Part shown: positions 4,794-55,612 of the stretch, in pieces
How the letters are laid out: every line of letters begins with the position of its first letter
How positions within the stretch are numbered: position 1 is the first letter of the stretch
DNA from: Peptococcaceae bacterium
Lineage (GTDB): Bacteria; Bacillota; Dehalobacteriia; UBA4068; JAAVYR01
DNA: 64,000 bases
Direction of reading: 5' to 3'
Assembly: GCA_022791255.1 (NCBI GenBank)
Contig: JAAVYR010000004.1
Coordinates: forward strand, 92,094 to 156,093
The notes under the pieces: generated by a model
What the model was told of the DNA's origin: nothing
What the model saw: only the letters and a program-made list of their open reading frames with translations
The model's database searches: none
Translations under genes and position numbers: made by a program

Positions 4794-4868
4794 GCTTCCG
4801 TAGTTAAATGGATATAACAGCCCCCTCCTAAGGGGCAGTTGTGGGTTCGATTCCCGCCGGGAGTACCA
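4794..4868 (+). tRNA. tRNA-Arg (anticodon CCU).
   Basis: Cloverleaf folds by hand. Acceptor GCTTCCG/CGGGAGT, D-stem GTTA/TAAC, anticodon stem GCCCC/GGGGC with loop CTCCTAA, T-arm GTGGG-TTCGATT-CCCGC, encoded 3' CCA. The minus-strand ORF (4686..4958) translating through it is an artefact. Confidence 0.8.
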
Positions 4869-4965: not shown

Positions 4966-5460
4966 ATGACTATCTATCAGCAGCAGCAATCATTAGAATT
5001 TTATATGCAGGAAGCATTATTAGAGGCAGAAAAAGCCCAGGCGCATGGAGATATCCCAGTAGGTGCCGTCATCGTGCGCCAAGGGGAAATCATTGCCCGG
5101 GGGCACAACCTACGGGAGCAGGAACAATCTGTCCTGCTCCATGCTGAAATGGTTGCCATTGCTGAAGCCTGCCAGGTTTTGGGTAGCTGGCGCCTCAAGG
5201 ACTGCGACCTCTATGTTACCTTAGAGCCCTGCCCTATGTGTGCAGGTGCCATCATCCAAGCCCAAATCAAAACAGTTATCTTTGGTGCAGATGACAGCAA
5301 ATGGGGCGCCGGCGGCAGCCTTTTCCAGCTGCTAGAGTCGCCCCTTTTAAACTATCAGGCAGAAGTTATCAGCGGCATTTGCGCCCCAGAGAGTAAAGCC
5401 TTGTTACAACAGTTTTTTCTCAACCGGCGAAATTCATCTAAGTCAGGTAATGACAGATAA
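4966..5460 (+). CDS. tadA: tRNA-specific adenosine deaminase (TadA; CMP/dCMP deaminase zinc-binding).
   Basis: HAEMVAI...PCPMCAGAI zinc-binding motifs. The ORF is open from 4888, but that would overlap the tRNA terminator; the start is placed at the in-frame ATG at 4966. Confidence 0.8.
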   Translation: MTIYQQQQSLEFYMQEALLEAEKAQAHGDIPVGAVIVRQGEIIARGHNLREQEQSVLLHAEMVAIAEACQVLGSWRLKDCDLYVTLEPCPMCAGAIIQAQIKTVIFGADDSKWGAGGSLFQLLESPLLNYQAEVISGICAPESKALLQQFFLNRRNSSKSGNDR

Positions 5461-5490
5461 AAGACCATACTGCTAGCAGTATGGTCTTTT
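5459..5490 (+). terminator. Terminator after tadA.
   Basis: AAGACCATACTGCTAGCAGTATGGTCTTTTGTTT perfect hairpin plus T-run. Confidence 0.7.
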
Positions 5491-18539: not shown

Positions 18540-18716
18540 AAACTTACCACAAACTACATAAATTAAATAAAACCAACTACCTCTTACATATATTTCGTGT
18601 AAGAGGTAGTTTTTTTAGATCCTTCGCTTTCGCTCAGGATGACAGATGGTGCCACAAAGTACGAAAAAAATACGAACGACTTCTGACCGCCATACTTTTG
18701 CCTAAGCGGGAGTGGA

Positions 18717-18920
18717 TTATTTATATTTATCCATTTCCAGAATATGGTCTGTAGTAGTATGAAAAAACAGAGCCAGCTGCACCAAATGACAATTAGGAAG
18801 ATTTAACCTGCCAACTTCATAATTAGAATAAGTAGTCTGATGAATGCCTAAATAATCCGCTATTTGCTGTTGCGTAAGACCATGTTCTTTCCGTAGGGTA
18901 ACTAGCCGAGGATATGCCAT
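18717..18920 (-). CDS. Small XRE-family HTH transcriptional regulator (67 aa).
   Basis: MAYPRLVTLRKEHGLTQQQIADYLGIHQTTYSNYE is a Cro/C1-type HTH. Its start overlaps the stop of the upstream XRE gene by 19 nt (ATGGCATATCCTCGGCTAG). Confidence 0.6.
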   Translation of the reverse strand: MAYPRLVTLRKEHGLTQQQIADYLGIHQTTYSNYEVGRLNLPNCHLVQLALFFHTTTDHILEMDKYK

Positions 18921-19156
18921 AGGGGCTCGCCTTCTTTCTCCTCTGTAAAAAATTCGCTTAAGGAAATATTCAAAATCTGACAAAGTCTGACAATCGTCAG
19001 CATTTTAGGGTTACCGATGCCCTGCCGCATTCTCTTTAATGTGGTTTGAGACACACCAGAGAGGATGGATAGCTGAAACATCGTTAGATGTTGCTCTTTT
19101 CGTAAGGTCTCCACCCGTCTGCCGAGCCATAGGGTAAAATCATCAGTAGATATCAT
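18902..19156 (-). CDS. Small XRE-family HTH transcriptional regulator (84 aa).
   Basis: LRKEQHLTMFQLSILSGVSQTTLKRMRQG HTH. Divergent from the RHH gene. Confidence 0.7.
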   Translation of the reverse strand: MISTDDFTLWLGRRVETLRKEQHLTMFQLSILSGVSQTTLKRMRQGIGNPKMLTIVRLCQILNISLSEFFTEEKEGEPLWHILG

Positions 19157-19274
19157 AAAAATTCCTCCTAAAATATTACTCTAGTTGTGGAGCCAATTAG
19201 GAGCCATAACTACTTTTCAGTATAAGATAATGTCATAATGATGTCAAGATATCGCCAAAAAGGAGTCGATAAAA

Positions 19275-19451
19275 ATGAAAGACGATATGGTAAGATATTC
19301 ATTACGCATAGAAGGAGCTTTGTTAGATAAGTTAGGTTATGTGGCTGAATACGAAGGCAGGACAAAGAACAAAGAGATTGAACAGCTAATTAAGAAGAGA
19401 ATTGCCGACTTTGAAAAGAAATTTGGAGAGATAAAAGTAACAGAAGAATAA
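19275..19451 (+). CDS. Ribbon-helix-helix (CopG/Arc-like) small DNA-binding protein, 58 aa.
   Basis: RBS AAAGGAG-N9-ATG. RYSLRIEGALLDKLGYVAEYEGRTKNKEIEQLI is the typical RHH beta-strand/helix pattern. Below the 60-aa track cutoff. Confidence 0.55.
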   Translation: MKDDMVRYSLRIEGALLDKLGYVAEYEGRTKNKEIEQLIKKRIADFEKKFGEIKVTEE

Positions 19452-19857
19452 TATTCTGAGCGTTAGCGAAGAAAAGCTTTGATACTATTGCGGGGAGCCG
19501 CCGCCTGTTTGACGCGGGGAACGGCAAGTAGTGACGAGGCTGTTACTAGGTCAACCAGGCGGCAGTTTTGCTTCTTTTTCAAAAAGAAGTTAAAGACTTA
19601 CCAAAAGGAACTTACACCACTTGCCCAACTGTAAAAAGTACAATGTATATATTTAAGAGTTACTATCTACCTTTGACAACTGGGCAAATACGAATTATTT
19701 ACCTTGGGCTTGCTTTGCTTGTTCTTTTAAGAAAAGAACCAAAATCGCAATCTGGTTGCCTTTGCCTGGCAGCCTCGTCACTACCTAGTGCTCCCCGCGG
19801 CAAACAGATTGCCTTCCCCATTTACTAAAAGATCCTTCGCTTTCGCTCAGGATGACA
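19452..19857. repeat. ~400-bp structured repeat element, copy 1. It is bounded by imperfect inverted ~27-bp terminal repeats, an internal long stem and a central palindrome CTTCTTTTTCAAAAAGAAG. A ~130-bp associated tail runs to ~19990.
   Basis: Left end TATTCTGAGCGTTAGCGAAGAAAAGC; right end AAGATCCTTCGCTTTCGCTCAGGATGACA. About 85 % identical in inverted orientation to 30619-30927. The internal ORF (19568..19828) is not conserved as protein between copies. Confidence 0.7.
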
Positions 19858-20074
19858 GAAACCCTCCACTTGGTACAGAAGCAAAGCTCACTACTTCCTA
19901 GGCAAAAGTAACTGTTGGAAGTAGTATGTAGCCTTTTGTGCAGTGTAGCACCATCTGTGGCATCATCCGTGGCATTGTCTATCATCTATTGACAGTATAA
20001 TAGTTTAGCATTAAACTATTTATATCATAGGCAAATAACTCATATGATAGATTAATATGATAGGAGGCATTTTC

Positions 20075-21322: not shown

Positions 21323-21841
21323 TTATTTACAGGTTATATGACACATAGACATGGCCGCAAGGGCACCTTTATGACTATCTGGCGTAACACCAGCACAACA
21401 GCTACTATCGACCGTAATTTCTGCTTCTGGCAATGCTGCTTTTAAGAGCATTACATTAGAGATAACGCAAATATCCGTACAAAGGCCTATCACTTCAATA
21501 TCATCAAACTGTTCCCCTAAGACATATTCCATCAGCGCTAAACTGCCAAAGGTAGGCTTATCAAAAATCTTCTTGTTTATGGTATATGCTTCCAGCTGGG
21601 GAATAATCTGCCAGCCTGTTGTTCCCCGAATGCAATGGGGAACAGGAAGCATTTTCCCCTCTTTCGTATCCAGATAGTTTTCCTCATGAGTATCGCGGGT
21701 AAAGACAACATTCACCCCTGCTTGAAGGGCTTGAGCTATCTTTTCTACCACGAGAGGAACGATAGCCTTTGCCTCCGCAGTACCTAGGGCACCGTCTACA
21801 AAATCATTTTGCATATCCACCACAACCAACAACTTCTTCAT
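21323..21841 (-). CDS. Isochorismatase-family cysteine hydrolase (nicotinamidase-like).
   Basis: MKKLLVVVDMQNDFV N-terminus and catalytic-Cys region. The 210-aa track ORF is truncated to the Met at 21841 because the upstream part is a tRNA. Confidence 0.7.
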   Translation of the reverse strand: MKKLLVVVDMQNDFVDGALGTAEAKAIVPLVVEKIAQALQAGVNVVFTRDTHEENYLDTKEGKMLPVPHCIRGTTGWQIIPQLEAYTINKKIFDKPTFGSLALMEYVLGEQFDDIEVIGLCTDICVISNVMLLKAALPEAEITVDSSCCAGVTPDSHKGALAAMSMCHITCK

Positions 21842-21906
21842 AAAGAACCCCGCCCTTCTCTTAGCAAGATAATAAAAAAACTCTGACAATGTTCTGTCAG
21901 AGTTTT

Positions 21907-21983
21907 TGGTGTGCCTGGAGGGATTCGAACCCCCGACCTCATGGTTCGTAGCCATGCGCTCTATCCAACTGAGCTACAAGCAC
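21907..21983 (-). tRNA. tRNA-Arg (anticodon ACG).
   Basis: GTGCTTGTAGCTCAGTTGGATAGAGCGCATGGCTACGAACCATGAGGTCGGGGGTTCGAATCCCTCCAGGCACACCA folds as a cloverleaf with anticodon loop CTACGAA. Confidence 0.85.
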
Positions 21984-22025
21984 ATAATCATACAGTATCT
22001 GCCCAAAGACAGATACTGCATTTTC

Positions 22026-22116
22026 TGGCGGAGAAAAAGGGATTCGAACCCTTGATACGGTTGCCCGTATACATGATTTCCAATCATGCGCCTTCGACCA
22101 ACTCGGCCATCTCTCC
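22026..22116 (-). tRNA. tRNA-Ser (anticodon GGA), long variable arm.
   Basis: GGAGAGATGGCCGAGTTGGTCGAAGGCGCATGATTGGAAATCATG..long arm..AAGGGTTCGAATCCCTTTTTCTCCGCCA. Upstream promoter TTGCCA-17-TATAAT at 22142-22170 (minus sense). Confidence 0.85.
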
Positions 22117-30182: not shown

Positions 30183-30422
30183 TTATAAATCCCTGAAAAA
30201 CTCATCAAAACTATCTACATGATAAAGTTCCTTTAATGCCAACAAGACGCTAACTTTAACACTATAACAACCTCGTTCCATTTGAGAAATTACTTCTCGA
30301 CTGATAGAAATATCTGCTAATTGCAACTTAGCAGCAACCTGTTCTTGAGATAAATTTGTTGCTTTCCGTAACCTTCTTAAATTATCACCAATAGAAATAT
30401 CTTGTTTAATGTTATTTGACAT
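30183..30422 (-). CDS. Small XRE-family HTH regulator (79 aa).
   Basis: RBS GGAG-N9-ATG at 30422. NLRRLRKATNLSQEQVAAKLQLADISISREVISQMERG HTH. C-terminal tail resembles that of the 18902-19156 XRE protein. Confidence 0.65.
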   Translation of the reverse strand: MSNNIKQDISIGDNLRRLRKATNLSQEQVAAKLQLADISISREVISQMERGCYSVKVSVLLALKELYHVDSFDEFFRDL

Positions 30423-30565
30423 AAAAATTTCTCCAATCTTTTTTTGGAATGTTTTCATTCCACTATTGATTTTAAACACTCACTCATGTTATTATTGGAA
30501 TGTATTAATTCCAATAATATTTTTTAGGAGAAATTTTTATCCAATGTCACCCTGAGGGAACCTTT

Positions 30566-31190
30566 AAGATCCTTCGCTTCGCTCAGGATGACAATCAGAA
30601 ACACCCACTACCTTTCCATGTCATCCTGAGGAACGCAGTGACAAAGGATCTTTTAGTATATGGGGAAGGCAATCTGTTTGCCGCGGGGAGCACTAGATGG
30701 TGACGAGGCTGCCAGGCAAAGGCAACCAGATTGCAAGTTTGGTTCTTTGCAGGCAAAGAACAGAAAAATGACCCAAAGTAAATAATTCGTACTTGCCCAA
30801 CTGTTAGAGGTAGATAGTATCTTTTAAATATATACATTGTACTTTTGACAGATAGGCAATTGCTACAAGTTTCTTTGAGTAAATCTTTAACTTCTTTTTG
30901 AAAAAGAAGCAAAACTACCGCCTGGTTATAATCTGCCACTTTTAAGGTAAGCAATGCTTAGTACTTCCAGACTGGGAAAAGTAAAATGTAGGCCAATATG
31001 TAAAAGTGGGGATATCTAGGCGGCAGGTCCCCGCCAATTAAAAGATCCTTCGCTTTCGCTCAGGATGACAGATAGTACCACTTTATACAAGGGAAACACT
31101 CACTGCTTCTAACAGAAGAGGAAAAGTAATTGCTAGTAGCTGTATGTAATTCTTTTGTAAAATGTGGCAGTATCTAGGATGAAAAAAACA
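30566..31190. repeat. Repeat element copy 2 (inverted relative to copy 1). Composite order: right-form hairpin repeat (30566-30593), inverted left-form (30619-30652), ~310-bp core homologous to copy 1 (30619-30927), second hairpin repeat (31042-31070), homologous tail (to ~31190).
   Basis: Reverse complement of 19568-19857 aligns at ~85 % to 30619-30927, including the CTTCTTTTTSAAAAAGAAG palindrome and TTGCCCAACTG blocks. The track ORF 30595..30954 lies inside it. Confidence 0.7.
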
Positions 31191-31221: not shown

Positions 31222-31398
31222 ATGTCAGATTTTATCCCGAAAGGCTATACCAAACAGCAAATTACCATTCGGATAGATGAGCAAAAGCTGGAAAAGATAG
31301 ATAGAATAGCCGCTAAATTTAACCTAAGCCGCAGCGCCTTTGTAAATCAGTGTATCGACTATGCCCTCTCCATGATGGAGATAGGAAAGGAAAGTTGA
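31222..31398 (+). CDS. Ribbon-helix-helix (CopG-like) small protein, 58 aa.
   Basis: KQQITIRIDEQKLEKIDRIAAKFNLSRSAFVNQCIDYAL RHH pattern. Paralogous context to 19275-19451. Confidence 0.5.
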   Translation: MSDFIPKGYTKQQITIRIDEQKLEKIDRIAAKFNLSRSAFVNQCIDYALSMMEIGKES

Positions 31399-31478
31399 AT
31401 TGTCTCCTGTATAAGCAAAACGAACTAATCCCTAGGCCCAAAATAACTGCCGGAAGTAGTTCGTATTTCATATCCAGA

Positions 31479-39242: not shown

Positions 39243-40415
39243 CTACTTTACTATGCCACCGTCTATAATGATGGTCTTACCATAATGAGAAAAAATATTC
39301 ATCTTTGTATCTGTAATCAAAGTCTGAGTTTTCTCCCCTACCAATTTTAATAGCTGTTGGCACCGCTTCTCATCTAATTCTGAGGCTACATCATCTAAAA
39401 GCAGCACTGGATATTGACCGCTCTTCTGATGAAACAAATCAATCTCTGCTAGCTTCAAAGCAAGGGCCGCTGTCCTCTGCTGCCCTTGAGAACCAAATTG
39501 ACGAGCAGAAATACCATTAATGGTAATGGCAATATCATCTCTATGGGGTCCTACACCTGTAGTGCCTTTATACAAATCTTCCCGCCGATTTCTTTCTAAT
39601 GCCAGTTTTAACTGCTCTTTTAAAAAATCCTGCTGGGTACTGGAAGAAGTATGGTCTTTTTTCATCCTAGCTAAGGTTTGCCAAACTTCATCGTTTTGTT
39701 CCTTTTGACGGAAAAGAGCTGCTTCATAAGAAAGATGGATATATTCTTTACCATCGCTCAACAACCGATGAATTTTTTCAGCAAAGGGAAGGATATCTTC
39801 TAGTAGCTGTTGTCTTTTCAGTAAAATAGCACTACCATGACGGCTAAGTTCCTCGTCCCACACGGCAAGCATCTCGGGATCTGTCTCACCATAGGATTGC
39901 TTTAAATATTTATTTCGTTGTTCCACACTTTGCCGGTAAGCACTGTAAACAGGATAAAACTCCCCATCAAGCTGCAGTAGTTCCCTATTTAAAAACTTCC
40001 GACGAATAGCAGGACCGTCCTTTACCAGTGATAAGTCCTCTGGAGAAAAAATAACTGTCTGAAAATGTCCCAGCACTTGGCTGGTCTTTTTCAGGGCTTT
40101 GCCATTGATTTTCCATAATTTTCTTTTTTCCCTAGTATATCCCACAGACATCTCCAGGGGCGTCTCCTCACCAGAAAAAGGGTCTCTGCCCCTGACCCCG
40201 GCACATAAAAAAAAGTAGGGTTCCTGCCAGCGAATTAAATCTACATCGCTGCTATCCCGGTAAGAGCTAGCCAACGAAAAATAACAGCAAGCCTCTATGA
40301 GATTAGACTTTCCTTGTCCGTTTAACCCCGTAATTAGGTTAATATTTGGGTGCCATTGGATGAATTGCTCCTGATAATTACGAAAATTCCGCAGTAATAA
40401 AGACTCAATACGCAC
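39243..40415 (-). CDS. recF: DNA replication and repair protein RecF.
   Basis: GLNGQGKSNLIEA Walker A, LLLDDVASELD Walker B, conserved dnaA-dnaN-recF order. Confidence 0.9.
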   Translation of the reverse strand: MRIESLLLRNFRNYQEQFIQWHPNINLITGLNGQGKSNLIEACCYFSLASSYRDSSDVDLIRWQEPYFFLCAGVRGRDPFSGEETPLEMSVGYTREKRKLWKINGKALKKTSQVLGHFQTVIFSPEDLSLVKDGPAIRRKFLNRELLQLDGEFYPVYSAYRQSVEQRNKYLKQSYGETDPEMLAVWDEELSRHGSAILLKRQQLLEDILPFAEKIHRLLSDGKEYIHLSYEAALFRQKEQNDEVWQTLARMKKDHTSSSTQQDFLKEQLKLALERNRREDLYKGTTGVGPHRDDIAITINGISARQFGSQGQQRTAALALKLAEIDLFHQKSGQYPVLLLDDVASELDEKRCQQLLKLVGEKTQTLITDTKMNIFSHYGKTIIIDGGIVK

Positions 40416-40476
40416 CCTTTTTCACCTACTCTTTCTTAGACGCTTTCTCTTTTAAAAAAGTTTCTTTTTATTTTTA

Positions 40477-40692
40477 TTATTCTGTTACAACTTCATATTG
40501 GATATCTTCTACTGTTACTTGATCACCAACAAATATTTTTTTGCCAGGGGAAGTTTCCATACTGCCATTTACCAGAACCATACCATCTCTAATCATTTCT
40601 TTTGCCATGCTGCCATTTTCAGCGATACCGCACCACTTCAACAACTGCTGCAGCTGAATATATTCTGTATGAATAAATACTTTTTCCATCAT
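40477..40692 (-). CDS. yaaA: S4-domain RNA-binding protein (YaaA/RlbA-like).
   Basis: 71 aa, IQLQQLLKWCGIAENGSMAKEMIRDGMVLVNG. Position between dnaN and recF. Confidence 0.7.
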   Translation of the reverse strand: MMEKVFIHTEYIQLQQLLKWCGIAENGSMAKEMIRDGMVLVNGSMETSPGKKIFVGDQVTVEDIQYEVVTE

Positions 40693-40835
40693 GATGCCTC
40701 TTTTATCTCATAAATTTATGTTCTAATTATCTTTATCATATGTTATCTATTATATCAAATATCTATCTTAAAAAAAACTACCTCTTATCCCATTGCTTTG
40801 CATAAGAGGTAGCTTATTTTACTTTTATTTAATTC

Positions 40836-41936
40836 TTATCCAATCCTTACAGGCAGGATTAAATAAAGAAAGTTTTCATCAGCGTCGCTGGTAATAATCC
40901 CCGGTGTTACAGGCCCGGTCAGCTCCATATAAAGAGAGTCGCCTTCTATATTTTTTAATACTTCTAAAATATACTTGCTATTATAAACGACTTCTATCTC
41001 TTCCCCTTGATGAAGGATAGACATATGACCATCAATGGTACCTAAATCCGGTGCGCTAGCATGGAAACCCAATAAATCTTGACCAAAATGAAGCTTAATC
41101 ACACCTGCCCCTTCTCTTGCTACCACAGAAGCCCGTTCCATTTCTTGTAAGAAACGGCTGCTTTGAATGACGCTTTTCGTAATAAAAGCCTCTTTTTTCG
41201 GAATTACTTGATTATAATCAGGATATTGTCCATTAATCACCCGGGAAATAAAGGCAACTTGTCCTGTCCGGAAATAAATCTGATTTTTAGAAATAATCAA
41301 ATCAATCTGTTGATCCTCCGCTGCAAAGCGAGCAATCTCTTGCATAGTCTTAGCAGGAACGATAACCTTGCCCACACCTTTTCCCTGCCAAGGAATGACT
41401 TGTTTTGCCAAACGGTGGGTATCTGTAGCCACCATGACCAACTGACCTTCTATAAAATCTAACAACACCCCAGTAAAAACAGGTCTTGCTTCATTGGTAG
41501 AAGCAGCAAAAGCAACTTGTCTTACAATTTTCTTAAAAAGAGGTGCCGGAATAGAGCCTTCAATATCCCCCTGTACTTCTGGAAAGGCTGGAAAATCCAC
41601 TGGGTCCATACCACGGAACACAGTCTCAGAATTTTCATAGCTGACTGTCAAATCAAATTCTCCTGTTTGAGCTAAAACAATAGTACCTTGGGGTAAAAAA
41701 CGCACTAAATCTAAAAAGTTTTTACCTGGAACCACTACTTTCCCAGAAGCTTCTACTTCTGCAGGAATACAACACTCGATAGCTAACTCTAAATTTGTAG
41801 ATTGTAAGAAAAGACGGTCATCCTCTGCCCACAATAAAATACCAGATAACACTGGCAAAGTATTTTTACCAGAAACAGCACGGCTTACTGTCTGTACGCC
41901 ATAAAGCAAATCTTCCATCTGACAAGAAACTTTCAT
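40836..41936 (-). CDS. dnaN: DNA polymerase III beta sliding clamp.
   Basis: 366 aa, three-domain beta-clamp pattern, immediately downstream of dnaA/oriC. Confidence 0.9.
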   Translation of the reverse strand: MKVSCQMEDLLYGVQTVSRAVSGKNTLPVLSGILLWAEDDRLFLQSTNLELAIECCIPAEVEASGKVVVPGKNFLDLVRFLPQGTIVLAQTGEFDLTVSYENSETVFRGMDPVDFPAFPEVQGDIEGSIPAPLFKKIVRQVAFAASTNEARPVFTGVLLDFIEGQLVMVATDTHRLAKQVIPWQGKGVGKVIVPAKTMQEIARFAAEDQQIDLIISKNQIYFRTGQVAFISRVINGQYPDYNQVIPKKEAFITKSVIQSSRFLQEMERASVVAREGAGVIKLHFGQDLLGFHASAPDLGTIDGHMSILHQGEEIEVVYNSKYILEVLKNIEGDSLYMELTGPVTPGIITSDADENFLYLILPVRIG

Positions 41937-42488
41937 ATTCTTAAAATCCTTTCTCTCTGATCCTCAAAACAACCCAAATATCTCTATATTCTATTTTACC
42001 TATTTTTAACAAGAAATAAAATACTTTTCTATTTTTTCTGTTTATTGTTTTTTTTCATAGGTTTTTTCTAACATATAATCATCCTCTTAATCACAATGTT
42101 ATCCACATTATCCACAATCTTTGTGTATAACTAAAAGCCCTTATAAACCAAGAATTTTTTTTGTTCTCATGAAAATGATTTTCAGAAAAAAACTGTCATA
42201 ACATGGTCTTTTAATTAGTTATCCACAGTATCTTTGTGAATAATCCAAGTGGATAGTGGAATATTTTGATAAGTAGGCGACCTAATAAAAAAACTGTGAA
42301 CAAATGTGGATAAATTGGTGATGATTTTAAGATTATCCACTGACAAAAAAATGTATAAATGACCTGCAACACACTATAATAAAGGGGTTATCCACAAAAA
42401 ATTGCTACCCTTATTATTAATACTATTTAAAATAATAATAAATATAATAATATGCACAATCATAACAAAATAGAAGAAAACAGAAAAA
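41937..42488. other. oriC segment between dnaA and dnaN: DnaA-box cluster plus AT-rich DNA-unwinding element.
   Basis: TTATCCACA or 1-mismatch boxes at ~42098, 42108, 42228, 42305 (TGTGGATAA), 42342 and 42388. 60-bp AT tract (AATAATAATAAATATAATAATATGCACAATCATAAC) at 42405-42480. Confidence 0.75.
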
Positions 42489-43892
42489 TTATTTGTTAAT
42501 TAAATCAATAAGTTCATTAATAGCTCTGTTTAAATTTTCGTCGGTTACTTTTTCTGCAGAGATTTTTTCATAAGCATGCAGCACAGTTGTGTGGTCTCTG
42601 CCGCCAAACTCTTGTCCTACTTTTTGCAAAGGTTCTTCTAAAATATCCCGACAAAGATACATAGCAATCTGACGAGGATAAGCGATGGCCCTATCCCGAC
42701 GTTTATTTTTAAAATCTTCTACTTTTAAATGATAATAGTCTGCCACTACTTCTTGAATGGTATCAATGGTAACGGGCTTTTTGGGTTCATCAGGTAAAAG
42801 GCCTTTTAAAGCTTCACCAGCAATGGCTGGTGTAATCGTATTCAAACAATTAATATGTGCATAATAAATCACTTTGTTTAAAGCGCCTTCTAATTCTCGA
42901 ATATTAGAGTGAATGCGGGAAGCAATGAAAAATAACACTTCATCGGAGACAATAATATTTTCCCGTTGGGCTTTATATTGTAAAATAGCAATTCTCGTTT
43001 CTACATCCGGTGGCTGGATATCGGTAATCAGACCCATTTCAAAACGGGAACGCAGCCGTTCTTCTAAGGTAGGAATATCCTTGGGTGGACGGTCGCTGCT
43101 TAAAATAATCTGTTTGCCAGACTCAAAAAGGCTGTTAAAAGTATGGAAAAATTCTTCCTGGGTACTTTCTTTTCCAGAAATAAATTGGATATCGTCGACT
43201 AAAAGCGCGTCAGCATTCCGATATCTATTTTTAAAACTATGGGCTTTACCTAAACGAACAGAGGCAATAAATTCATTGGTGAAAGTTTCGGTAGAAACAA
43301 ACACTACATTAAAACCTGGATTATGTTGAATAAGATAGTAGGCTATGGCTTGCATCAGGTGAGTTTTACCAAGGCCGGAGCCACCATAAATAAAAAGAGG
43401 ATTATATGCTCTGGCTGGGCGCTCTGCTACTGCGTGGGCTGCAGCATGGGCAAAACGGTTTGAGTTGCCTACTACGAAAGTATCAAAGGTATATCTAGGA
43501 TTTAATTTATAATTATTGCCAGCAGAGATAAAGGAGTCAGTTTGTATTTCCTCTTCCTCTTCTTTTGGTTGGGCAAAATGATTGCTAAAAGAATTGCTTT
43601 CTCCACCTGTAAAATCAGTAGGAGAAGGCGTTTCTTCCCATTGATTTTCATTTTGATGAAAGGATATAAATAAGGGGTCTAGTTCTTCTCCTGATACAGT
43701 ACAAAGGGCATTCTTTACAATATGAGACATATTTTCTTCCATCCAGTCGCGGGCTACTTCTGTAGGCATGGCAATAATAAATTGATTTTTTTGCCGTGTG
43801 ACAGATAGAATAGAACGAAACCACCGTTCGTAACGGTCTTCTGGTATTTGTTGTCTAATAATGGTTTGGGCCTTTTGCCAAATATTGCTCAT
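42489..43892 (-). CDS. dnaA: Chromosomal replication initiator DnaA.
   Basis: 467 aa with AAA+ Walker A (GGSGLGKTHL), sensor motifs and C-terminal DNA-binding domain. Confidence 0.95.
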   Translation of the reverse strand: MSNIWQKAQTIIRQQIPEDRYERWFRSILSVTRQKNQFIIAMPTEVARDWMEENMSHIVKNALCTVSGEELDPLFISFHQNENQWEETPSPTDFTGGESNSFSNHFAQPKEEEEEIQTDSFISAGNNYKLNPRYTFDTFVVGNSNRFAHAAAHAVAERPARAYNPLFIYGGSGLGKTHLMQAIAYYLIQHNPGFNVVFVSTETFTNEFIASVRLGKAHSFKNRYRNADALLVDDIQFISGKESTQEEFFHTFNSLFESGKQIILSSDRPPKDIPTLEERLRSRFEMGLITDIQPPDVETRIAILQYKAQRENIIVSDEVLFFIASRIHSNIRELEGALNKVIYYAHINCLNTITPAIAGEALKGLLPDEPKKPVTIDTIQEVVADYYHLKVEDFKNKRRDRAIAYPRQIAMYLCRDILEEPLQKVGQEFGGRDHTTVLHAYEKISAEKVTDENLNRAINELIDLINK

Positions 43893-44200
43893 AGGTAGGA
43901 CGCCTCTTTCTAATTGTTGAACTGACTATTTTTTTATAGTTTTTGAAATAATTGCTGAAATGTAGGATGTAATGCTTATTTATGACGATATAGATACATG
44001 AAAAAAAATTTTGTTATAACTAAAGAAATTTGTTAAAAAAAGAAAAATGGGATTTTTTGGATAATTTGGATAATGTGTATAAGTTGTGTATAAAATAAAA
44101 AATTGCCCACTAAAAGTAAGAAAAGTACCTTGTAGATAATAAAATTTATTGGAAATAAAATTTATCCACAATTTGTGGATAAATTTTTAAATTTATAAAT
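43893..44200. other. Upstream oriC DnaA-box cluster (dnaA promoter region).
   Basis: Inverted perfect pair TTATCCACAattTGTGGATAA at 44162-44182 plus TGGATAAT repeats at 44058-44075. Confidence 0.7.
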
Positions 44201-44491
44201 GCAGTTTCATAATAACAGAGAGACTTGTCAAATTCAAGTAGATATTTTTTCCTACTATTACGATTATAATAGGGATAATCCAAAGATAATGGAACAATAA
44301 AAGGAAAAAAGTCTATAAAAGATATCTTACATATTTTCCAGGGAATGGCTTGACATTTCTACTTAAAAAAGATATACTTTTTTCGTTATACTGGGAGTAG
44401 ACCAGGGGGTTGTCTACAGCTTGCCGGCAGATGGATAGCTGTAAGGGCCCTTGTGGTAACAAATAAGAAAAAAGAGAGGAGAGATTGAAAA

Positions 44492-44626
44492 GTGAAACGC
44501 ACTTATCAACCAAAAAGAAGAGTTCATAAAAGAGTTCATGGCTTCTTGTCCAGAATGAGCAGCAAATCCGGTAGAAACGTATTAAAAAGAAGAAGAGCTA
44601 AAGGCAGAAAAGTTCTTTCTGCTTAG
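44492..44626 (+). CDS. rpmH: 50S ribosomal protein L34.
   Basis: GTG start with [56 protein letters not shown]. Below the track size cutoff. Confidence 0.9.
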
Positions 44627-44755
44627 CCAGATGACGAAGGCCGCCTTCCGCGGTCTTTCTTTCTATTTATTATAAATTTATATTTTAAAGCCAATAGAAA
44701 GAAACATCTATAAAAAGTAATCATAAAAAAGTAATGATATGATAAGGTTCTATTT

Positions 44756-45112
44756 ATGTTAAAAAAAACATACCGTTTAACCAGAAGAAATGACTTTCGC
44801 CGCGTCTATGGCCGGGGAAAGTCAGTGGCGAATTACAGTATGGTATTGTATGTGGCTCCCAGCAGAAACCAATCTATGCGAATTGGTTTTTCTGTTTCTA
44901 AGAAAATAGGCAAAGCGGTTGTTCGCAATCGAGTAAAAAGATTGATGAGAGAGGCTTCTTTTCATTTGCTTCCCTCCTTTTCTCCTTATAAAGATTATGT
45001 CTTTATTGCGCGCAATGGCATCAAAGAACAAAGCTTGTTAGAAATAGAAAAACAAATGGCGTCTTTGTTAAAGAAAATCAAAGAAAACAAGAAAATAGAA
45101 CAAAGTAGATAA
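44756..45112 (+). CDS. rnpA: Ribonuclease P protein component.
   Basis: KTYRLTRRNDFRRVY..GKAVVRNRVKRLMRE. Conserved rpmH-rnpA order. Confidence 0.85.
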   Translation: MLKKTYRLTRRNDFRRVYGRGKSVANYSMVLYVAPSRNQSMRIGFSVSKKIGKAVVRNRVKRLMREASFHLLPSFSPYKDYVFIARNGIKEQSLLEIEKQMASLLKKIKENKKIEQSR

Positions 45113-45146
45113 AGTAGATAAAATGGGTATGTTTTTTTAAGAGGGT

Positions 45147-45365
45147 TTGATATTTGTGAAAAAATTGTGTATGGGTTTGATTTTGTTTTATCAAAAAGCC
45201 ATTTCGCCTTTATTGCCTGCACGGTGCAGATTTTATCCTACTTGTTCTCAATATGCTTTAGAAGCAGTGGAAAAATATGGGGTATGGAAGGGCGGTTGGA
45301 TGAGTGTGAAGCGCATTTGCCGTTGTCATCCATGGTCGCGCGGCGGCTATGACCCTGTAAAATAA
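45147..45365 (+). CDS. yidD: Membrane protein insertion efficiency factor YidD.
   Basis: [32 protein letters not shown] signature. Confidence 0.85.
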
Positions 45366-45397
45366 GTGAGGTGAACCGCATTTTTTGCGGAAAATAA

Positions 45398-46255
45398 TTG
45401 AGTAGTTTCATCAATCTAATTCAACAATTTGTTGAATATTTATTTGGTTTGACCCAATCTTTTGGGTTTCCCAGCTATGCGCTGGCTATTATTTTGCTTA
45501 CCATCATTGTAAAGGTATTATTATATCCTCTGATGCGGAAGCAAATGCAGTCTATGGCTACTTTGAATAAGTTACAGCCAAAGATTGCTGCTATTGACAG
45601 AAAATATGGTAAAAATCCCGCTAAGAAAAATGAAGCTTTAGTAAAGCTTTATCAACAAAACAATATTAATCCTATGGCAGGATGCTTGCCTTTACTTATT
45701 CAATTGCCTATTTTTGTTTGTTTATATCGCGCATTATTAAACTTTGAATACACTGGCGGGTTTGATAGCTTCTATTGGATTGAACATATAGGAAACCCAG
45801 ACCCTACAGGGATATATCTGCCTGTTTTAGTAGGGCTTAGCACCTATGCACAGCAGAAAATCATGATAACTAATAAAAATGACCGTATGCAAAACACGAT
45901 GCTCTATGTAATGCCAATTATGTTGGGTTTTATGGCAATTCGTTTTCCAGCTGGTCTTTGTCTCTACTGGATTACCTACAGCATTATCGGTACCTTGCAG
46001 CAGTTGGCAGTTAATCATGGCAGCTTATTTGGTGCTGTAAAGCATTATATGGATAAGAATAACGGGAATGCAGAAGCAGAAAAGGAAGACGCTGAAACTG
46101 ACAAAACTAATAAAGCAGATAAGACCAATAAGACTGGCAATCAAAAGAAAACTGAGAAAAAACAAGGCAAACAAAATAAGTCTGTTGAGAAACAGGAAGA
46201 GCCTGCTCAACAGCCAGAAGAGCTGGAACATCCTGACCAGCAGGATGAAGCGTAA
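45398..46255 (+). CDS. yidC: YidC/Oxa1-family membrane protein insertase (short Gram-positive form with K-rich tail).
   Basis: Conserved TM core (PLMRKQMQSM..LQP; NPMAGCLP..IQLPIF). C-terminal lysine-rich ribosome-binding tail. Confidence 0.85.
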   Translation: MSSFINLIQQFVEYLFGLTQSFGFPSYALAIILLTIIVKVLLYPLMRKQMQSMATLNKLQPKIAAIDRKYGKNPAKKNEALVKLYQQNNINPMAGCLPLLIQLPIFVCLYRALLNFEYTGGFDSFYWIEHIGNPDPTGIYLPVLVGLSTYAQQKIMITNKNDRMQNTMLYVMPIMLGFMAIRFPAGLCLYWITYSIIGTLQQLAVNHGSLFGAVKHYMDKNNGNAEAEKEDAETDKTNKADKTNKTGNQKKTEKKQGKQNKSVEKQEEPAQQPEELEHPDQQDEA

Positions 46256-46282
46256 GACATTGGTAAAGAAAGAGGGAAAAAG

Positions 46283-47017
46283 ATGTCTATTACAATAGAA
46301 AAAACAGCGAAAACTGTAGATGAAGCCATTGATAAAGCATTAAGCGAATTAAATGTTTCTATGGATGAAGCTGATGTAGAAATATTAGAAACTGGTAGCA
46401 AAGGTATTTTTGGCTTAGGTGGAAAGGACGCAAAGGTGCGGGTAACTGTAAAAGGGAAAGAAGAACCATTATCCTTTGCTGTTGCTGACCAACGAAAAGA
46501 GACTGAAAGTGTACCAGCTCCTGTTAAAAAGGCTGCTGTTCCTACAGATGATGGCGAAGTTGAAAAAATCGCTTTAAACTTCTTACAAGGTATTTTTGAT
46601 TATTTGAAGGTAACACCTGATATCGCTATAGAACGAAAGGAAGAGTCCTTGTGGTTGACAATGACAGGTGCTAACCTAGGCGTTATCATCGGTAGACGGG
46701 GAGAAACACTAGACTCTTTGCAATATCTGACTAATTTGGTGGTAAACCGTAAGGTGGCAGAAAAACAAAGAATTATCCTAGATGTAGAAGGATACCGCAA
46801 AACGAGAGAAGAAACGCTGCGGGATTTAGCGGAAAAAATGGCGGGTAAAGCTTTGAAAATGAATGGGCCATTGCGCCTAGAACCGATGAACCCCCATGAA
46901 CGGAGAATTATTCATATGACGCTGCAGGGAGACGAACGAGTAGAAACCTACAGCGAAGGGGAAGAACCTTTCCGTCGGGTCGTTATCAAGAAAAAGCGTC
47001 ATTTCCAAGATAAATAA
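46283..47017 (+). CDS. jag: Jag/KhpB (EloR) RNA-binding protein: Jag_N, KH and R3H domains.
   Basis: Jag_N at the start, KH GxxG (IIGRRGETLDSLQYL), C-terminal R3H. Terminator at 47024-47065. Confidence 0.85.
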   Translation: MSITIEKTAKTVDEAIDKALSELNVSMDEADVEILETGSKGIFGLGGKDAKVRVTVKGKEEPLSFAVADQRKETESVPAPVKKAAVPTDDGEVEKIALNFLQGIFDYLKVTPDIAIERKEESLWLTMTGANLGVIIGRRGETLDSLQYLTNLVVNRKVAEKQRIILDVEGYRKTREETLRDLAEKMAGKALKMNGPLRLEPMNPHERRIIHMTLQGDERVETYSEGEEPFRRVVIKKKRHFQDK

Positions 47018-52401: not shown

Positions 52402-53301
52402 TTAAAATTCTTCTCCTGGTAATAACAAATCTACCAGGCGGGTCAAATCCTCCGTATTAAAATATTTGATGCAGATTTGTCCCCCTTGCTCTTTCTCGGC
52501 AATGGTGATTTTAGTGCCGTATTTTTCTTCCATCCGTTTTAAGACGGCGCTATAGCTGGATTTACCGGATGTTTTTTTATTTACCTTTTTCTTTTCTGCT
52601 TGTTTTTTCTCTTTAGCGTCTTTTGCCCACTGTTCCGCTTGTCTCACGGAAAGATGATGTTTGACGATAGCTTCTGCCAGCTGTTTTTGTTCTTTTGCAG
52701 AGGTGAGGCTGAGGATGGCTCTTGCGTGGCCTGGGGATAAAACCCCATCTCGTATCATCTTTTGATATGGGGGGGCAAGAGAGAGCAGCCGTAAAGAGTT
52801 GGCGATATAAGGGCGACTCTTCCCCATTTTCCCAGCAAGTTGTTCTTGGGTATAACCAAATTCATCTATGAGGGCACGGTAACTGATGGCTTCTTCCAGA
52901 CCATTTAAATTTTCCCGTTGGATATTTTCGATTAGCGCCAGCTCTAAAATATCTTCTTTTTCTGTATTGCGGACAAAGGCTGGGATTTCAGTAAGACCTG
53001 CAAGAGTTGCTGCTCGCCAGCGCCGTTCCCCGGCAATAATCAGATAGAGGTCTTTTTTTGCTTCTGTGACAACGATAGGCTGTAAGATGCCATATGTTTT
53101 GATAGATGCGGCTAGTTCTTCTAGGGCGTTTTTATCAAAGTCTTTTCTTGGTTGATTAGGGTTTGGTGAAATATGAGAGATTGGCAGGAGTAATGGTTTA
53201 CCTGCTAATTCTTTTTCTTGTTTTGGTTCGATAGCGGCGCTTAAATCCATATCTTCTGGGATAAGGGCCGCTAGTCCCTTGCCTAGTCCTTTTTTATTCA
53301 T
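52402..53301 (-). CDS. parB: ParB/Spo0J chromosome partitioning protein.
   Basis: GERRWRAA box II motif, HTH, 299 aa. Overlaps the parA stop. Confidence 0.9.
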   Translation of the reverse strand: MNKKGLGKGLAALIPEDMDLSAAIEPKQEKELAGKPLLLPISHISPNPNQPRKDFDKNALEELAASIKTYGILQPIVVTEAKKDLYLIIAGERRWRAATLAGLTEIPAFVRNTEKEDILELALIENIQRENLNGLEEAISYRALIDEFGYTQEQLAGKMGKSRPYIANSLRLLSLAPPYQKMIRDGVLSPGHARAILSLTSAKEQKQLAEAIVKHHLSVRQAEQWAKDAKEKKQAEKKKVNKKTSGKSSYSAVLKRMEEKYGTKITIAEKEQGGQICIKYFNTEDLTRLVDLLLPGEEF

Positions 53302-54055
53302 GTTCCATTACCTCCATTGCCAGTTGTTCGTATACTTCTGCACCGCGGGATTTTGGGTCGTATAGGGAGATAGGCTTGCCATGGCTGGGTGCTTCAGATA
53401 GCCGCACATTCCGCGGAATAATGGCGCCAAAAACTTTGCCTTTGAAAAATTCCTTTACCTCATCTACTACTTGGATAGCAAGATTGGTACGGGCGTCAAA
53501 CATGGTGAGAAGCACTCCTTCTATTTCTAAGCCAGGGTTTAAGTGCTTTTTCACCAGTTGGAAAGTATTCATCAGCTGGCCTAATCCTTCTAAAGCGTAA
53601 TATTCGCACTGGATGGGAATGATGAGACTATCGGCGGCAGTGAGAGCATTTAATGTGAGGAGCCCCAGAGATGGTGGGCAATCAATGATAATATAATCAA
53701 AGTGTTCCTTTTCTTCTTCCATGGCATTTTTTAGCTTTTGTTCTCGATTGGCGCTGGATACTAATTCGATTTCAGCGCCGGCCAGAGAGATAGTTGCCGG
53801 CAGCACGGAAAGACCCTCTACCTCAGTGGGCTGGATAACGCCTGCCATGGGAATATCGTTGATTAATACATCATAAATGCAAAGCTCTAAATGGTCTCGG
53901 TCGACTCCTAAGCCGCTGGTAGCATTGCCTTGGGGGTCAATGTCGATGACCAATACCTTCTTCCCTGCTTTTGCCAGATAGGCGCTTAAGTTTACCACGG
54001 TGGTCGTTTTTGCTACGCCGCCTTTTTGATTCACAATTGCTATTGTTTTTGCCAT
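53294..54055 (-). CDS. parA: ParA/Soj chromosome partitioning ATPase.
   Basis: MAKTIAIVNQKGGVAKTTT deviant Walker A, 253 aa. Confidence 0.9.
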   Translation of the reverse strand: MAKTIAIVNQKGGVAKTTTVVNLSAYLAKAGKKVLVIDIDPQGNATSGLGVDRDHLELCIYDVLINDIPMAGVIQPTEVEGLSVLPATISLAGAEIELVSSANREQKLKNAMEEEKEHFDYIIIDCPPSLGLLTLNALTAADSLIIPIQCEYYALEGLGQLMNTFQLVKKHLNPGLEIEGVLLTMFDARTNLAIQVVDEVKEFFKGKVFGAIIPRNVRLSEAPSHGKPISLYDPKSRGAEVYEQLAMEVMEHE

Positions 54056-54157
54056 GTTTTCACCATCCGCTATTCATTGCTTTTGTTATCATTATCATTA
54101 CGATGATTTTCACGATTATATTTATTATATACGATACTGCACGGAGAAACAAGAGAA

Positions 54158-54186
54158 GGGTAATGTTTCACATGAAACATTACCCT
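54158..54186. promoter_or_regulatory. parS-like site inside an extended palindrome GGGTAATGTTTCACATGAAACATTACCC.
   Basis: Located between parA and rsmG. Same 16-mer as at 52308. Confidence 0.5.
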
Positions 54187-54251
54187 ATATTTTATGCAGA
54201 AGTACGATTTTTCGTGTTTTTTCCCTAAGAGAATGACAGAAAAGTGTGATT

Positions 54252-54971
54252 TTATAAAGGCTTCTTTTCCGGCACTCCTACCCGGCGCGGGTACTTTTCT
54301 GCAGTGGGAGATATTTTCTCTATGACGGTAATGCACCGTTCTCCCGGTTCTAATAATGCATAAGGATATTGGCCTTTTACCCGGCCGCCTAGTGTTATGA
54401 TAGCGTTTTGTGCCTCTGCCAGCTCTTCCTCTGCTTTTGCCCCCTTGAAGGCACAAAAGACGCCGCTTGTCTTCAGGAGTGGCAGAGCGTATTCGCAAAG
54501 GATAGAGAGTCTGGCTACTGCACGGGCAGTGACCATGTCATAGTTGCTCCTACCCTCTCCTCTGCCCCAGGTCTCTGCTCGGTCGCAAACGATAGTGACA
54601 TTTTCCAGGGAGAGTGCCTCAACTACTTGCCGCAAAAAATTGCAGCGTTTTTCCATAGACTCTAGCAGTGTTATGGACAACTCTGGCAGGAAGATAGCCA
54701 GAGGTATGGCTGGAAAGCCGGCACCGCTGCCGATATCTATTAACTTCTTCCCTGCTAGGTCTTTGATAAACAAACTTTCTAATACGGGAAGCAGCTGCCA
54801 AGCGTCTAAAAAGTGCTTCTCTGCTATCTGGTCTTTTTCAGTGATAGCGGTCAGGTTCATGGTAGCATTGGTTTCCAGCACCATCTCGCCGTAAAGAGCC
54901 AGTTTATCCAGCTGTTCGGCAGGCAAGTGAATGCCTTGTTTTGTAAAAATATCTATGATGGCTTGTTTCAT
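54252..54971 (-). CDS. rsmG: 16S rRNA (guanine527-N7)-methyltransferase RsmG (GidB).
   Basis: IDIGSGAGFPAIPLAI SAM motif. Conserved rsmG-parA-parB order. Confidence 0.85.
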   Translation of the reverse strand: MKQAIIDIFTKQGIHLPAEQLDKLALYGEMVLETNATMNLTAITEKDQIAEKHFLDAWQLLPVLESLFIKDLAGKKLIDIGSGAGFPAIPLAIFLPELSITLLESMEKRCNFLRQVVEALSLENVTIVCDRAETWGRGEGRSNYDMVTARAVARLSILCEYALPLLKTSGVFCAFKGAKAEEELAEAQNAIITLGGRVKGQYPYALLEPGERCITVIEKISPTAEKYPRRVGVPEKKPL

Positions 54972-55050
54972 CGTGTTACTTCCTTTATGATATGAGGTCT
55001 ATTACCATAAGTTTACTATAGCATAGCATAAAAGAGAATTTTTGGGAATA

Positions 55051-55365
55051 TCAGTCGGCAAATTCTGTATAATCCTTTTGATAAATGTCGATCATGATTT
55101 TGGCGCCGAGACGAAAGCCGTCGATATAGCTCTGAGCAGGTTGCCAATAGATTTCCTCCAGTTGTTCGGACTGGAGCCGTTCAAATTCTTCCTTTAGTTT
55201 GGGGTCTATTTCTTTTAATTTTTGTCCGAAGCTATCTTCGCGCAAATGGATGATTTTTAGTAGGCGGCGGTATTCAGCGATGTCCTCTTGGTAATCCTCT
55301 AAAGGGGCCAGCTCTCCTTCATAAAGCTGCAAAAGAGGGCTTTTCATCTTATCACTTCGTTCCAT
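55051..55365 (-). CDS. Hypothetical protein.
   Basis: 104-aa acidic ORF, no motif recognised. Confidence 0.35.
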   Translation of the reverse strand: MERSDKMKSPLLQLYEGELAPLEDYQEDIAEYRRLLKIIHLREDSFGQKLKEIDPKLKEEFERLQSEQLEEIYWQPAQSYIDGFRLGAKIMIDIYQKDYTEFAD

Positions 55366-55404
55366 AATTTATTCTCCTTTCTATTTTTTAGTTGTGGTTA
55401 TGGA

Positions 55405-55491: not shown

Positions 55492-55612
55492 CATAGAAAT
55501 AATGCCAGCAACTTCATTGTAGTTCTTTCTGTAAATAAGCAAAAGTGCCATAATCGGACACTGTAAAAAAGAACCACTATCTATAGATAGCGGTTCTTTT
55601 TTTGTATATGGC

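Follow-up and report, generated by a model that had tools for sequence, protein, structure and literature searches.

A non-coding hairpin repeat found beside small XRE and ribbon-helix-helix regulator genes in uncultured gut Clostridia

Introduction

Why should two loci of one bacterial chromosome, each with its own small regulator genes, share an inverted repeat of about 400 bp that does not read as a gene? The question arises in a 64,000-nt stretch of a Peptococcaceae bacterium genome (contig JAAVYR010000004.1, positions 92,094 to 156,093; hereafter the window). An initial annotation had proposed two paralogous cassettes there, each combining XRE-family helix-turn-helix and 58-aa ribbon-helix-helix (RHH) genes with the repeat, which we call E. 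It had read E as either a mobile element resembling a MITE (miniature inverted-repeat transposable element) or a structured RNA partner of the regulators.

We establish here that E represents a repeat family that is non-coding, keeps its stems by compensatory change, is polymorphic and is linked to XRE/RHH cassettes. Judging from the sequences compared, we give about an even chance to the reading that E is a new, lineage-specific, hairpin-mosaic repeat, akin to MITEs, to doublets of repetitive extragenic palindromes (REPs) forming hairpins (REPINs) and to bacterial interspersed mosaic elements (BIMEs), which would mark and reshuffle small regulator cassettes. The main rival is a structured leader RNA involving the conserved right half of E.

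Results

E is a mosaic of conserved hairpins

The two copies were recovered as inverted counterparts: positions 19553-19837 match 30927-30644 at 87.4% identity over 286 nt (blastn E-value 6e-91), and the repeat finder aligned them at 87% over 156 nt and 95% over 105 nt. All sequence features listed in the initial annotation are present, and four corrections to them were needed. The units were delimited by repeat search, alignment and folding, and a short derivative, the mini-E, by blastn; H and H' denote a hairpin motif treated further below.

19454-19860, + strand: E copy 1, whole unit
19454-19478: degenerate H
19490-19499: GCGGGGAGCC
19500-19563: left arm hairpin
19571-19589: palindrome A
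19590-19720: AT-rich centre
19721-19739: palindrome B
19747-19812: right arm hairpin
19831-19856: H'
30619-31071, - strand: E copy 2, in canonical orientation on the - strand
30669-30734: right arm hairpin of copy 2
30742-30761: palindrome B, followed by the centre
30891-30909: palindrome A
about 30928-31032: type-2 left arm
31044-31069: terminal H
55406-55491, + strand: mini-E, 86 bp, the left end of E fused directly to the right end (GCGGGGA-c-TCCCCGC)

Copy 2 extends over 30565-31071 if the adjoining hairpin dyad is counted in. The mini-E is 98% identical to 19454-19496 and 94% identical to 19824-19856, and lies ~36 nt upstream of a DUF6809 gene. A canonical unit measures 410-455 bp and reads, in order, H (GTCATCCTGAGCGAAAGCGAAGGATC); a ~12-nt spacer and GGGGAsCyGCCGCC; the left arm; AACCAGGCGGCAG; palindrome A (CTTCTTTTT-C-AAAAAGAAG); a ~130-nt AT-rich centre with TTGCCCAACTGT ... 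ACAGTTGGGCAA; palindrome B (GTTCTTTT-AAG-AAAAGAAC); the right arm; and CTTCCCC, a spacer and H', the second half mirroring the first. The imperfect terminal inverted repeats noted at the outset are the 25-28-nt H/H' motifs found at both ends, of which the left one is degenerate in copy 1 (19454-19478, paired with GATCCTTCGCTTTCGCTCAGGATGAC at 19831-19856). The 19-bp palindrome CTTCTTTTTCAAAAAGAAG was likewise found where it had been reported, at 19571-19589, and recurs in copy 2 at 30891-30909. Perfect A/T palindromes of the window are confined to E (3 matches against 0.03 expected). The long closing stem is confined to copy 1 (38 nt, 19505-19542 / 19770-19807, 84% complementary); in copy 2, as in most family members, another left arm of ~100 nt takes its place.

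The right arm forms a 14-bp stem, GCAATCTGGTTGCC / GGCAAACAGATTGC, around a 38-nt loop. Across copy 1, copy 2 and the copies of L020, L160 and L155b (contigs described below), it is 88-99% identical, against 69-85% for the centre. The coding sequence of the regulator gene XRE2 beside the L160 copy is 73% identical to that of the window; the ends of E are thus better conserved than the neighbouring gene, which would make E a tractable test case if its association with the regulators is functional.

The initial annotation had asked for a check of compensatory base changes, and the stems of E do keep pairing through two-sided changes. When three hairpins were scored over eight half-elements, 93% of cells were paired, and six pairs (13 cells) changed on both sides, a number reached in none of 500 shuffles; slid controls gave at most 2 cells. 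Examples are GCAATC/GATTGC versus GCCGCC/GGCGGC in the arm stem and G-C versus C-G at the base of the small palindromes. The arm stem keeps a single mismatch at one constant position in all copies. Folded as single-stranded DNA, copy 1 reached -82.1 kcal/mol (z = -8.4), copy 2 gave z = -5.7 and a third fold z = -8.4. Covariation of this kind cannot separate RNA from single-stranded DNA or from palindromic protein-binding sites. The type-2 left-arm hairpin retains G.U pairs on the canonical strand, a weak hint that a strand-specific single-stranded form may matter.

E is non-coding and matches no catalogued family or element

The open reading frames (ORFs) inside E, 19568-19828 and 30595-30954, had been suspected not to be genes. 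Indels of 1 nt do break them between the copies, and Pfam offers no credible match to either; the three full copies all differ from one another by frameshifting indels, and L020 has lost the ATG. Two E-derived ORFs, P0001 and P0007, have been called as genes by automatic pipelines. A full-library phmmer search with the 119-aa ORF returned P0007 and one weak repetitive match only, and with a six-frame concatenated translation of E as protein query none of 8000 candidates scored.

Rfam gave no match over E at gathering thresholds, and permissive Rfam scans gave only chance-level eukaryotic microRNA and small nucleolar RNA matches (E-value ≥ 0.12, far under gathering scores). That E might be a fragment of a known insertion sequence, prophage or plasmid had been named as a possible refutation; blastn against PLSDB (72,556 plasmid records) and INPHARED (50,697 phage records) and a search of IMG/VR with two conserved E patterns found no match. 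The arm pattern CGCGGGGA-N5-AG-N3-GTGACGAGGCTG had no match in GTDB representative genomes, from which the host species is evidently missing. A relaxed arm pattern gave three matches in JGI metagenomes, all due to chance and lying in GC-rich coding DNA. Profile searches with nhmmer detected no additional E copies in the window or in 1.46 Mb of retrieved loci. The family was encountered only in a small group of uncultured gut Clostridia.

Prediction found no outward promoter in or upstream of E at its threshold. A TTGACA-N17-TATTTA sequence in the centre of copy 1 and L020 had suggested a portable promoter, a candidate that was dropped because the sequence is not conserved in copy 2, L160, L155b or L142.

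E is polymorphic between related genomes

The census of E rested on the window and short related contigs. In what follows, XRE1, XRE2 and RHH1 are the regulator genes of the first locus and XRE3 and RHH2 those of the second, while D and S are two further hairpin modules; all are listed below. Exact-protein look-ups placed the same strain at 100% identity in several metagenomes, where its contigs end at H or inside E (window 19830, 19943, 30600, 30673 and 31041-31044), as expected because multi-copy sequence should break assemblies. A third full copy came from the same metagenome (L020, 1605-2113; 88.6% identical to copy 2 and 92% to the copy 1 core). Reached via a spurious ORF, it has an unrelated 199-aa gene on one side and, on the other, an HTH_26 XRE gene whose 3' end faces it. 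Six further loci of the family come from related metagenomic genomes.

By TrkA, the nearest genomes are an uncultured Clostridia metagenome-assembled genome (MAG), L141 (96% amino acid identity), and an uncultured Peptococcaceae MAG from mouse gut, L142 (91%). L142 carries two derivatives, a half-E directly upstream of a two-XRE operon and, ahead of another XRE gene, a diverged E core. A gene downstream of the two-XRE operon (5070-5462, - strand) encodes a 130-aa coiled-coil protein with five tandem MKDDIV(G/S) repeats. In L160, L161, L163 and L164 a full E, 80% identical to that of L020, ends ~30 nt before the ATG of XRE2 homologues, and in L155 and L157 a half-E ends at the same distance. 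L155 has another copy as well, a full E joined to what is left of the RHH1 3' end; L173 has an inverted E immediately after an RHH1 homologue; and L159 carries XRE1-XRE2-RHH1 without E.

The presence of E at a given site differs between related genomes, as the initial annotation had proposed to check. A related strain was assembled three times independently (L011, L013 and L014), with an identical MarR protein and a pckA 3' end 89% identical to that of the window; at locus 1 these assemblies have a 464-nt gap between pckA and the short-chain dehydrogenase (SDR) gene. This gap contains H', S, H, an E-left-end stub (TAAATACTTTCTCGGGGAGCCGCCGC) and 120 nt of unrelated sequence, without XRE/RHH genes and without E. 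At locus 2, the lipoprotein gene and rlmD are 204 nt apart in L141; this gap is without the XRE3-E-RHH2 block of the window, and its sole recognisable repeat module is a D dyad, inverted relative to that of the window. For rlmD and for the DUF6809 gene, homology to the window sets in again ~20-25 nt ahead of the start codon, so the inserted blocks reach up to resident genes' ribosome-binding sites.

The gap upstream of the DUF6809 gene (window 55366-55612; L168 199-420; L170 2-205) has at least three alleles in front of an identical DUF6809 protein. In place of the mini-E of the window, L168 has a divergent 73-aa XRE gene, a D and an E end, and L170 another divergent XRE gene; both XRE alleles bring their own promoter regions. 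The XRE2-XRE1 operon, too, occupies different chromosomal sites in different relatives.

E is associated with XRE and RHH genes

An XRE or RHH gene adjoins E at every locus with a full, half or core copy. All four loci found without reference to XRE genes (L020, L142 twice, L168) have an XRE gene beside E, and four of five contexts of XRE2/RHH1 homologues contain E. The association of E with XRE/RHH regulator genes is non-random. An orientation bias of flanking genes relative to E was also considered and is not significant (11 of 16 co-directional).

The regulators themselves were identified correctly at the outset: Pfam assigns the XRE genes to HTH_3/HTH_26/HTH_31 and both 58-aa RHH genes to Arc and RHH_1. 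Calling the cassettes paralogous is true of the DNA element and the layout and not of the genes, because the regulators share superfamilies only: RHH1 and RHH2 align with an E-value of 0.059, XRE2 and XRE3 do not align, and XRE1 and XRE3 are 22% identical (E-value 7e-5). XRE2 homologues (94, 85, 83 and 63% identity) are spread over no fewer than five genomic contexts. When the five regulators were scanned with PADLOC and PHROG, only generic helix-turn-helix, Arc and controller-protein matches came up, with no link to a defence system. By Pfam, PHROG and PADLOC the cassettes encode only DNA-binding proteins and no toxin. A toxin-antitoxin module was accordingly rejected, the cassettes being without a toxin gene and the ORFs inside E not conserved.

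Layout of the two loci

Locus 1 runs from the end of pckA and its terminator through H', a half S, XRE1, XRE2, a divergent promoter gap, RHH1, E and an inverted S to the SDR gene, which with its promoter closes the locus on the right.

18575-18611: pckA terminator (terminator prediction)
18618-18643, + strand: H' hairpin motif GATCCTTCGCTTTCGCTCAGGATGAC, directly after the pckA terminator
18644-18714, + strand: left half of the small palindromic module S, an arm and a centre hairpin (18693-18714), by homology to S of L011
18717-18920, - strand: XRE1, 67-aa HTH_3 regulator (Pfam HTH_3 1.8e-10)
18902-19156, - strand: XRE2, 84-aa HTH_3/HTH_26 regulator (Pfam)
19247-19219: predicted sigma-70-like promoter for XRE2
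19275-19451, + strand: RHH1, 58-aa Arc-like ribbon-helix-helix protein, divergent from XRE2 (Pfam Arc 0.0096; PHROG Arc-like repressor 1.4e-5)
19857-19958, - strand: complete S module, inverted relative to the orthologous S of L011, L013 and L014

The exact 26-mer GATCCTTCGCTTTCGCTCAGGATGAC occurs three times in the window against none expected. The half S at 18644-18714 pairs with 19889-19958 as inverted repeats of ~75 bp, so the whole block of locus 1 is bracketed; the half S is still joined to the XRE1 3' end in L155. The inversion of the complete S is seen in blastn, where L011 1784-1875 matches window 19938-19846 on the minus strand at 84%. For XRE1 the mechanical ORF extends to 18983, and the ATG at 18920 agrees with gene calls in relatives, among them 67-aa calls in L001 and L155-L158. 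The 19-nt overlap of XRE1 and XRE2 (18902-18920), which had been singled out as unusual, is real, since independent gene calls reproduce it (L155 4892-4910; L159 1666-1684). In one ENA assembly (contig L002), a 61-aa XRE2 variant, P0005, has lost most of the helix-turn-helix to an in-frame internal deletion, which could be an assembly artefact or a real deletion allele.

Locus 2 comprises rlmD, XRE3, the D dyad, E copy 2, an S-like palindrome, RHH2, an S centre hairpin and the end of the lipoprotein gene.

30183-30422, - strand: XRE3, 79-aa HTH_31/HTH_3 regulator, directly upstream of rlmD (Pfam)
30445-30462 and 30491-30520: palindromic candidate operators near XRE3, read from the sequence
30568-30650, no strand: D dyad, REPIN-like, with H' at 30568-30592, a spacer of ~26 nt and inverted H at 30622-30650
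31070-31180, no strand: S-like back-to-back palindrome between E copy 2 and RHH2, read from the sequence
31222-31398, + strand: RHH2, 58-aa CopG-type ribbon-helix-helix protein (Pfam RHH_1 5.9e-5)
31424-31460: S centre hairpin after RHH2 (S hairpin match 92%)

Gene calls for the 79-aa XRE3 exist in L008-L010. It ends 30 nt before rlmD, so the inserted regulator may now control rlmD. Both palindromes of the XRE3 promoter region share TGGAAT...ATTCCA half-sites and are likely candidates for XRE3 operators. The palindrome at 31070-31180 belongs to a direct-repeat family match with 18617-18687.

The H motif is far more widespread than E

H is a hairpin motif of 25-36 nt with a variable loop, often GCGNAGC on the opposite strand, and with a co-varying stem variant (ATCCT/AGGAT versus ATTCT/AGAAT). 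The pattern GATCCTTCG-N4-16-CTCAGGATGAC has six strict matches in the window against none expected.

18618, 19831, 30568, 31044, 55467 and 56375: strict H matches
near 19454, 30622, 35285, 36926, 55406 and 60878: degenerate H copies

Among the IMG/VR matches listed (L021-L140), more than 120 viral or metagenomic contigs carry H, and these differ greatly in base composition. One of them, L104, holds a tandem array of five H units with an 87-nt period. H had no Rfam match, an exact-sequence literature search for it found nothing, and a large MITE survey (PMC11602168) mentions neither the H motif nor Clostridia nor XRE. Since H is ubiquitous and the interior of E lineage-specific, the ends of E appear to be borrowed from a far more widespread hairpin repeat. 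As a cross-phylum repeat, H is worth separate study.

D dyads were found at window 30568-30650, L141 7964-8048, L020 2029-2112 and L160 1547-1625. S (L011 1766-1865 and window 19857-19958) and D (L141 7964-8048 and window 30568-30650) occupy orthologous sites in opposite orientation, which suggests either inversion between flanking inverted H motifs or independent re-insertion.

Genomic setting

The window covers the oriC region, with recF, dnaN, dnaA (42489-43892, - strand), yidC, jag, gidB, parA and parB. The origin-region genes lie at 39243-47017 and 52402-55365, and both E loci 12-25 kb to one side of dnaA. Elsewhere, a thiamine pyrophosphate riboswitch (2194-2301, - strand, 69.4 bits) precedes the gene for the ThiW thiamine-precursor transporter (1309-1833, - strand), an ordinary arrangement. 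There are four tRNA genes (21910-22116, - strand; 4794-4865, + strand; 58223-58295, - strand). A mechanical ORF at 21323-21955 overlaps a tRNA gene, and relatives have a 172-aa isochorismatase gene called there instead.

Discussion

A repeat that may reshuffle regulator cassettes

Several observations favour E as a hairpin-mosaic repeat: its ends are kept while its centre drifts; it occurs as full, half and ends-only derivatives, in inversions and in chimeras; assemblies break at it; and it is lineage-restricted. E, H, D and S have been inverted, deleted and recombined between strains. The hairpin modules would then be the substrates of rearrangements that bring regulator cassettes into the gaps just upstream of resident genes, possibly by hairpin-directed single-strand transposition with an enzyme encoded elsewhere in the genome, or possibly by recombination between the inverted repeats. 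At sites where E adjoins the start of a gene, it would be co-transcribed and become the leader of that gene.

A bolder version of this proposal, which we regard as a long shot, holds that these gut Clostridia have an undescribed cassette system whose recombination sites are H, D, S and E. In such a system a hairpin-recognising enzyme encoded elsewhere would move small XRE/RHH genes with their promoters into positions ~25-30 nt upstream of resident genes (rlmD, DUF6809, SDR) and so rewire them; E would be a cargo-less or leader form, with its arms acting as single-stranded DNA or RNA structure.

Several points weigh against the repeat interpretation. No locus differs by E alone, each polymorphism also involving genes or other modules. 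There is no target-site duplication, the flanks of copy 1, copy 2, L020 and L160 having no common direct repeat, and no transposase, REP-associated tyrosine transposase (RAYT) or integrase is found among window ORFs of at least 150 aa or on related contigs. The compensatory changes trace to few independent events and amount to a suggestion, not proof; in two related sequences the three outermost base pairs of the arm stem have changed together. That the arms are more conserved than the neighbouring coding sequence could also reflect purifying selection for a functional RNA or a protein-binding site. The label MITE-like therefore holds in kind. A classical MITE is not supported: neither a target-site duplication nor a clean empty site lacking only E nor, among the window ORFs examined and on related contigs, a cognate transposase was found.

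Alternative readings

The alternative that survives best, although we think it unlikely, is that E, whole or in its right half, acts in cis as a structured RNA. Transcribed together with the XRE/RHH genes as a long 5' leader or between cistrons, it could control translation, mRNA stability or read-through into the downstream gene, and its copies would stem from duplication of regulator modules, not from transposition. H' of L160 and L155 ends ~30 nt before the ATG of the XRE2 homologue, with only a ribosome-binding site and no sigma-70-like promoter found between them, and this junction is nearly alike in the two contigs though the proteins are only about 63% identical. The right arm is conserved above the adjacent coding sequence, the hairpins show compensatory changes, the type-2 left arm, read on the sense strand of the downstream XRE gene, keeps G.U pairs and shows changes to G.U, and E faces a co-directional downstream gene at six of eight loci. 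Yet no co-directional XRE gene lies downstream of copy 1, L020, L155a or L173, and the orientation of E relative to RHH1 is opposite in the window and in L173. There are half and ends-only derivatives, and a near-palindromic design that reuses the ubiquitous H motif is typical of DNA repeats. Neither an Rfam match nor a promoter inside or upstream of E was identified.

It is improbable that E acts instead as regulatory double-stranded DNA, with palindromes A and B and the CTGTTTG/CAACCAG arm stems bound by a dimeric XRE or RHH regulator or by a nucleoid protein, and with co-variation reflecting the two half-sites of one dimer. Such a role would suit the tight tie of E to genes for DNA-binding regulators, the restriction of A/T palindromes in the window to E (the three matches noted above) and their upkeep by symmetric base changes. 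The regulators beside E, however, come from different, barely related XRE subfamilies while its palindromes are nearly constant, and E neither contains nor resembles the operator-like repeats of XRE3 (30445-30520) and of the divergent XRE2/RHH1 promoter (19157-19274).

More doubtful still, indeed very improbable, is that both loci are what is left of a prophage, integrative element or plasmid, the XRE/RHH genes being an immunity switch and E a replication origin, transfer origin or attachment site. A divergent pair of XRE and Arc-like genes is the classical layout of an immunity region, PHROG matches include phage repressors, and RHH2 has a faint NikA-like match (E-value 0.065). Against this, E is without similarity to the phage, plasmid and IMG/VR records searched; no integrase, replication, relaxase or structural genes lie nearby; the flanks are housekeeping genes of the oriC region; and the inserted blocks measure only 1.1-1.3 kb.

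Finally, a small protein encoded by E, such as a hydrophobic type-I-toxin-like peptide, is effectively refuted: the 86- and 119-aa ORFs share an N-terminal stretch and pipelines call P0001 and P0007 as genes, but frameshifting indels part all three full copies, L020 is without the ATG, Pfam has no credible match, only one or two weak relatives exist among billions of proteins, and the arms, not the ORF core, are best conserved. These last three readings, operator DNA, prophage or plasmid remnant and coding function, are all less likely than the leader RNA or the hairpin-mosaic repeat.

Implications

If the association of E with regulators is functional, small transcription-factor genes are shuffled between chromosomal sites with a dedicated hairpin repeat in an uncultured gut lineage, which would offer a cheap route to rewiring the regulation of housekeeping genes. 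In practice, the ORFs inside E are not genes, E repeats break metagenomic assemblies at predictable points, and annotation should treat the XRE/RHH cassettes of the two loci neither as paralogues nor as toxin-antitoxin pairs.

Comparison with known systems

E resembles MITEs and the Correia (NEMIS) element of Neisseria in being short, non-coding, repeated and intergenic with terminal inverted repeats, in having length variants made by internal deletion, in lying often directly upstream of genes and in forming a long hairpin if transcribed. It differs in that no target-site duplication, parent insertion sequence or transposase was found (window ORFs and related contigs), and in its larger size (410-455 bp) with several self-folding hairpins per half in place of simple terminal repeats. 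Nor is steady XRE/RHH linkage a MITE property. General properties of MITEs are reviewed in PMC10969869, PMC3184786 and PMC2229807.

H recalls REP sequences as a 25-28-nt hairpin present in many copies (six strict ones in 64 kb, plus degenerate ones) whose stem pairs co-vary (ATCCT/AGGAT versus ATTCT/AGAAT). A REPIN consists of two inverted REPs (PMC3116915, PMC3337134), and the D dyad, with H', a spacer of ~26 nt and inverted H, is likewise made of two inverted units. Two REP superfamilies are defined by GTAG or CGTC end tags (PMC3733652). The ends of H, in contrast, read GTCATCC...GGATC and carry neither tag. A RAYT gene, encoding a Y1 transposase, was not found in the 64-kb window. REPIN-RAYT systems are described as passing mainly by vertical descent, whereas the contigs with H vary widely in base composition.

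The attC sites of integrons adjoin gene cassettes and have core sites RYYYAAC / GTTRRRY. Like them, E offers imperfect palindromes with a conserved internal mismatch beside small mobile genes, genes are inserted just upstream of others, and a single-strand hairpin is a plausible recombination substrate. The arm stems GCAATCTGGTTGCC / GGCAAACAGATTGC, however, do not fit RYYYAAC / GTTRRRY, the window has neither an integrase nor a cassette array, and E is 3-8 times as long as attC. Readings of H or of the E centre as a hammerhead, a MOB_P nic site (YATCCTG|Y) or a dif-like site were tried and rejected, the core positions misfitting and Rfam giving no ribozyme.

E also recalls BIMEs and enterobacterial repetitive intergenic consensus (ERIC) sequences, the mosaic repeats of enterobacteria. 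As in these, palindromic units in alternating orientation are combined with other short motifs, longer and shorter variants arise by insertion or deletion at fixed points, and copies lie between genes and within operons. There is no sequence relation, and the hosts of E are uncultured gut Clostridia/Peptococcaceae. We know of no association with regulator cassettes described for BIME or ERIC; the unusual trait of E is its constant company of small XRE/RHH genes.

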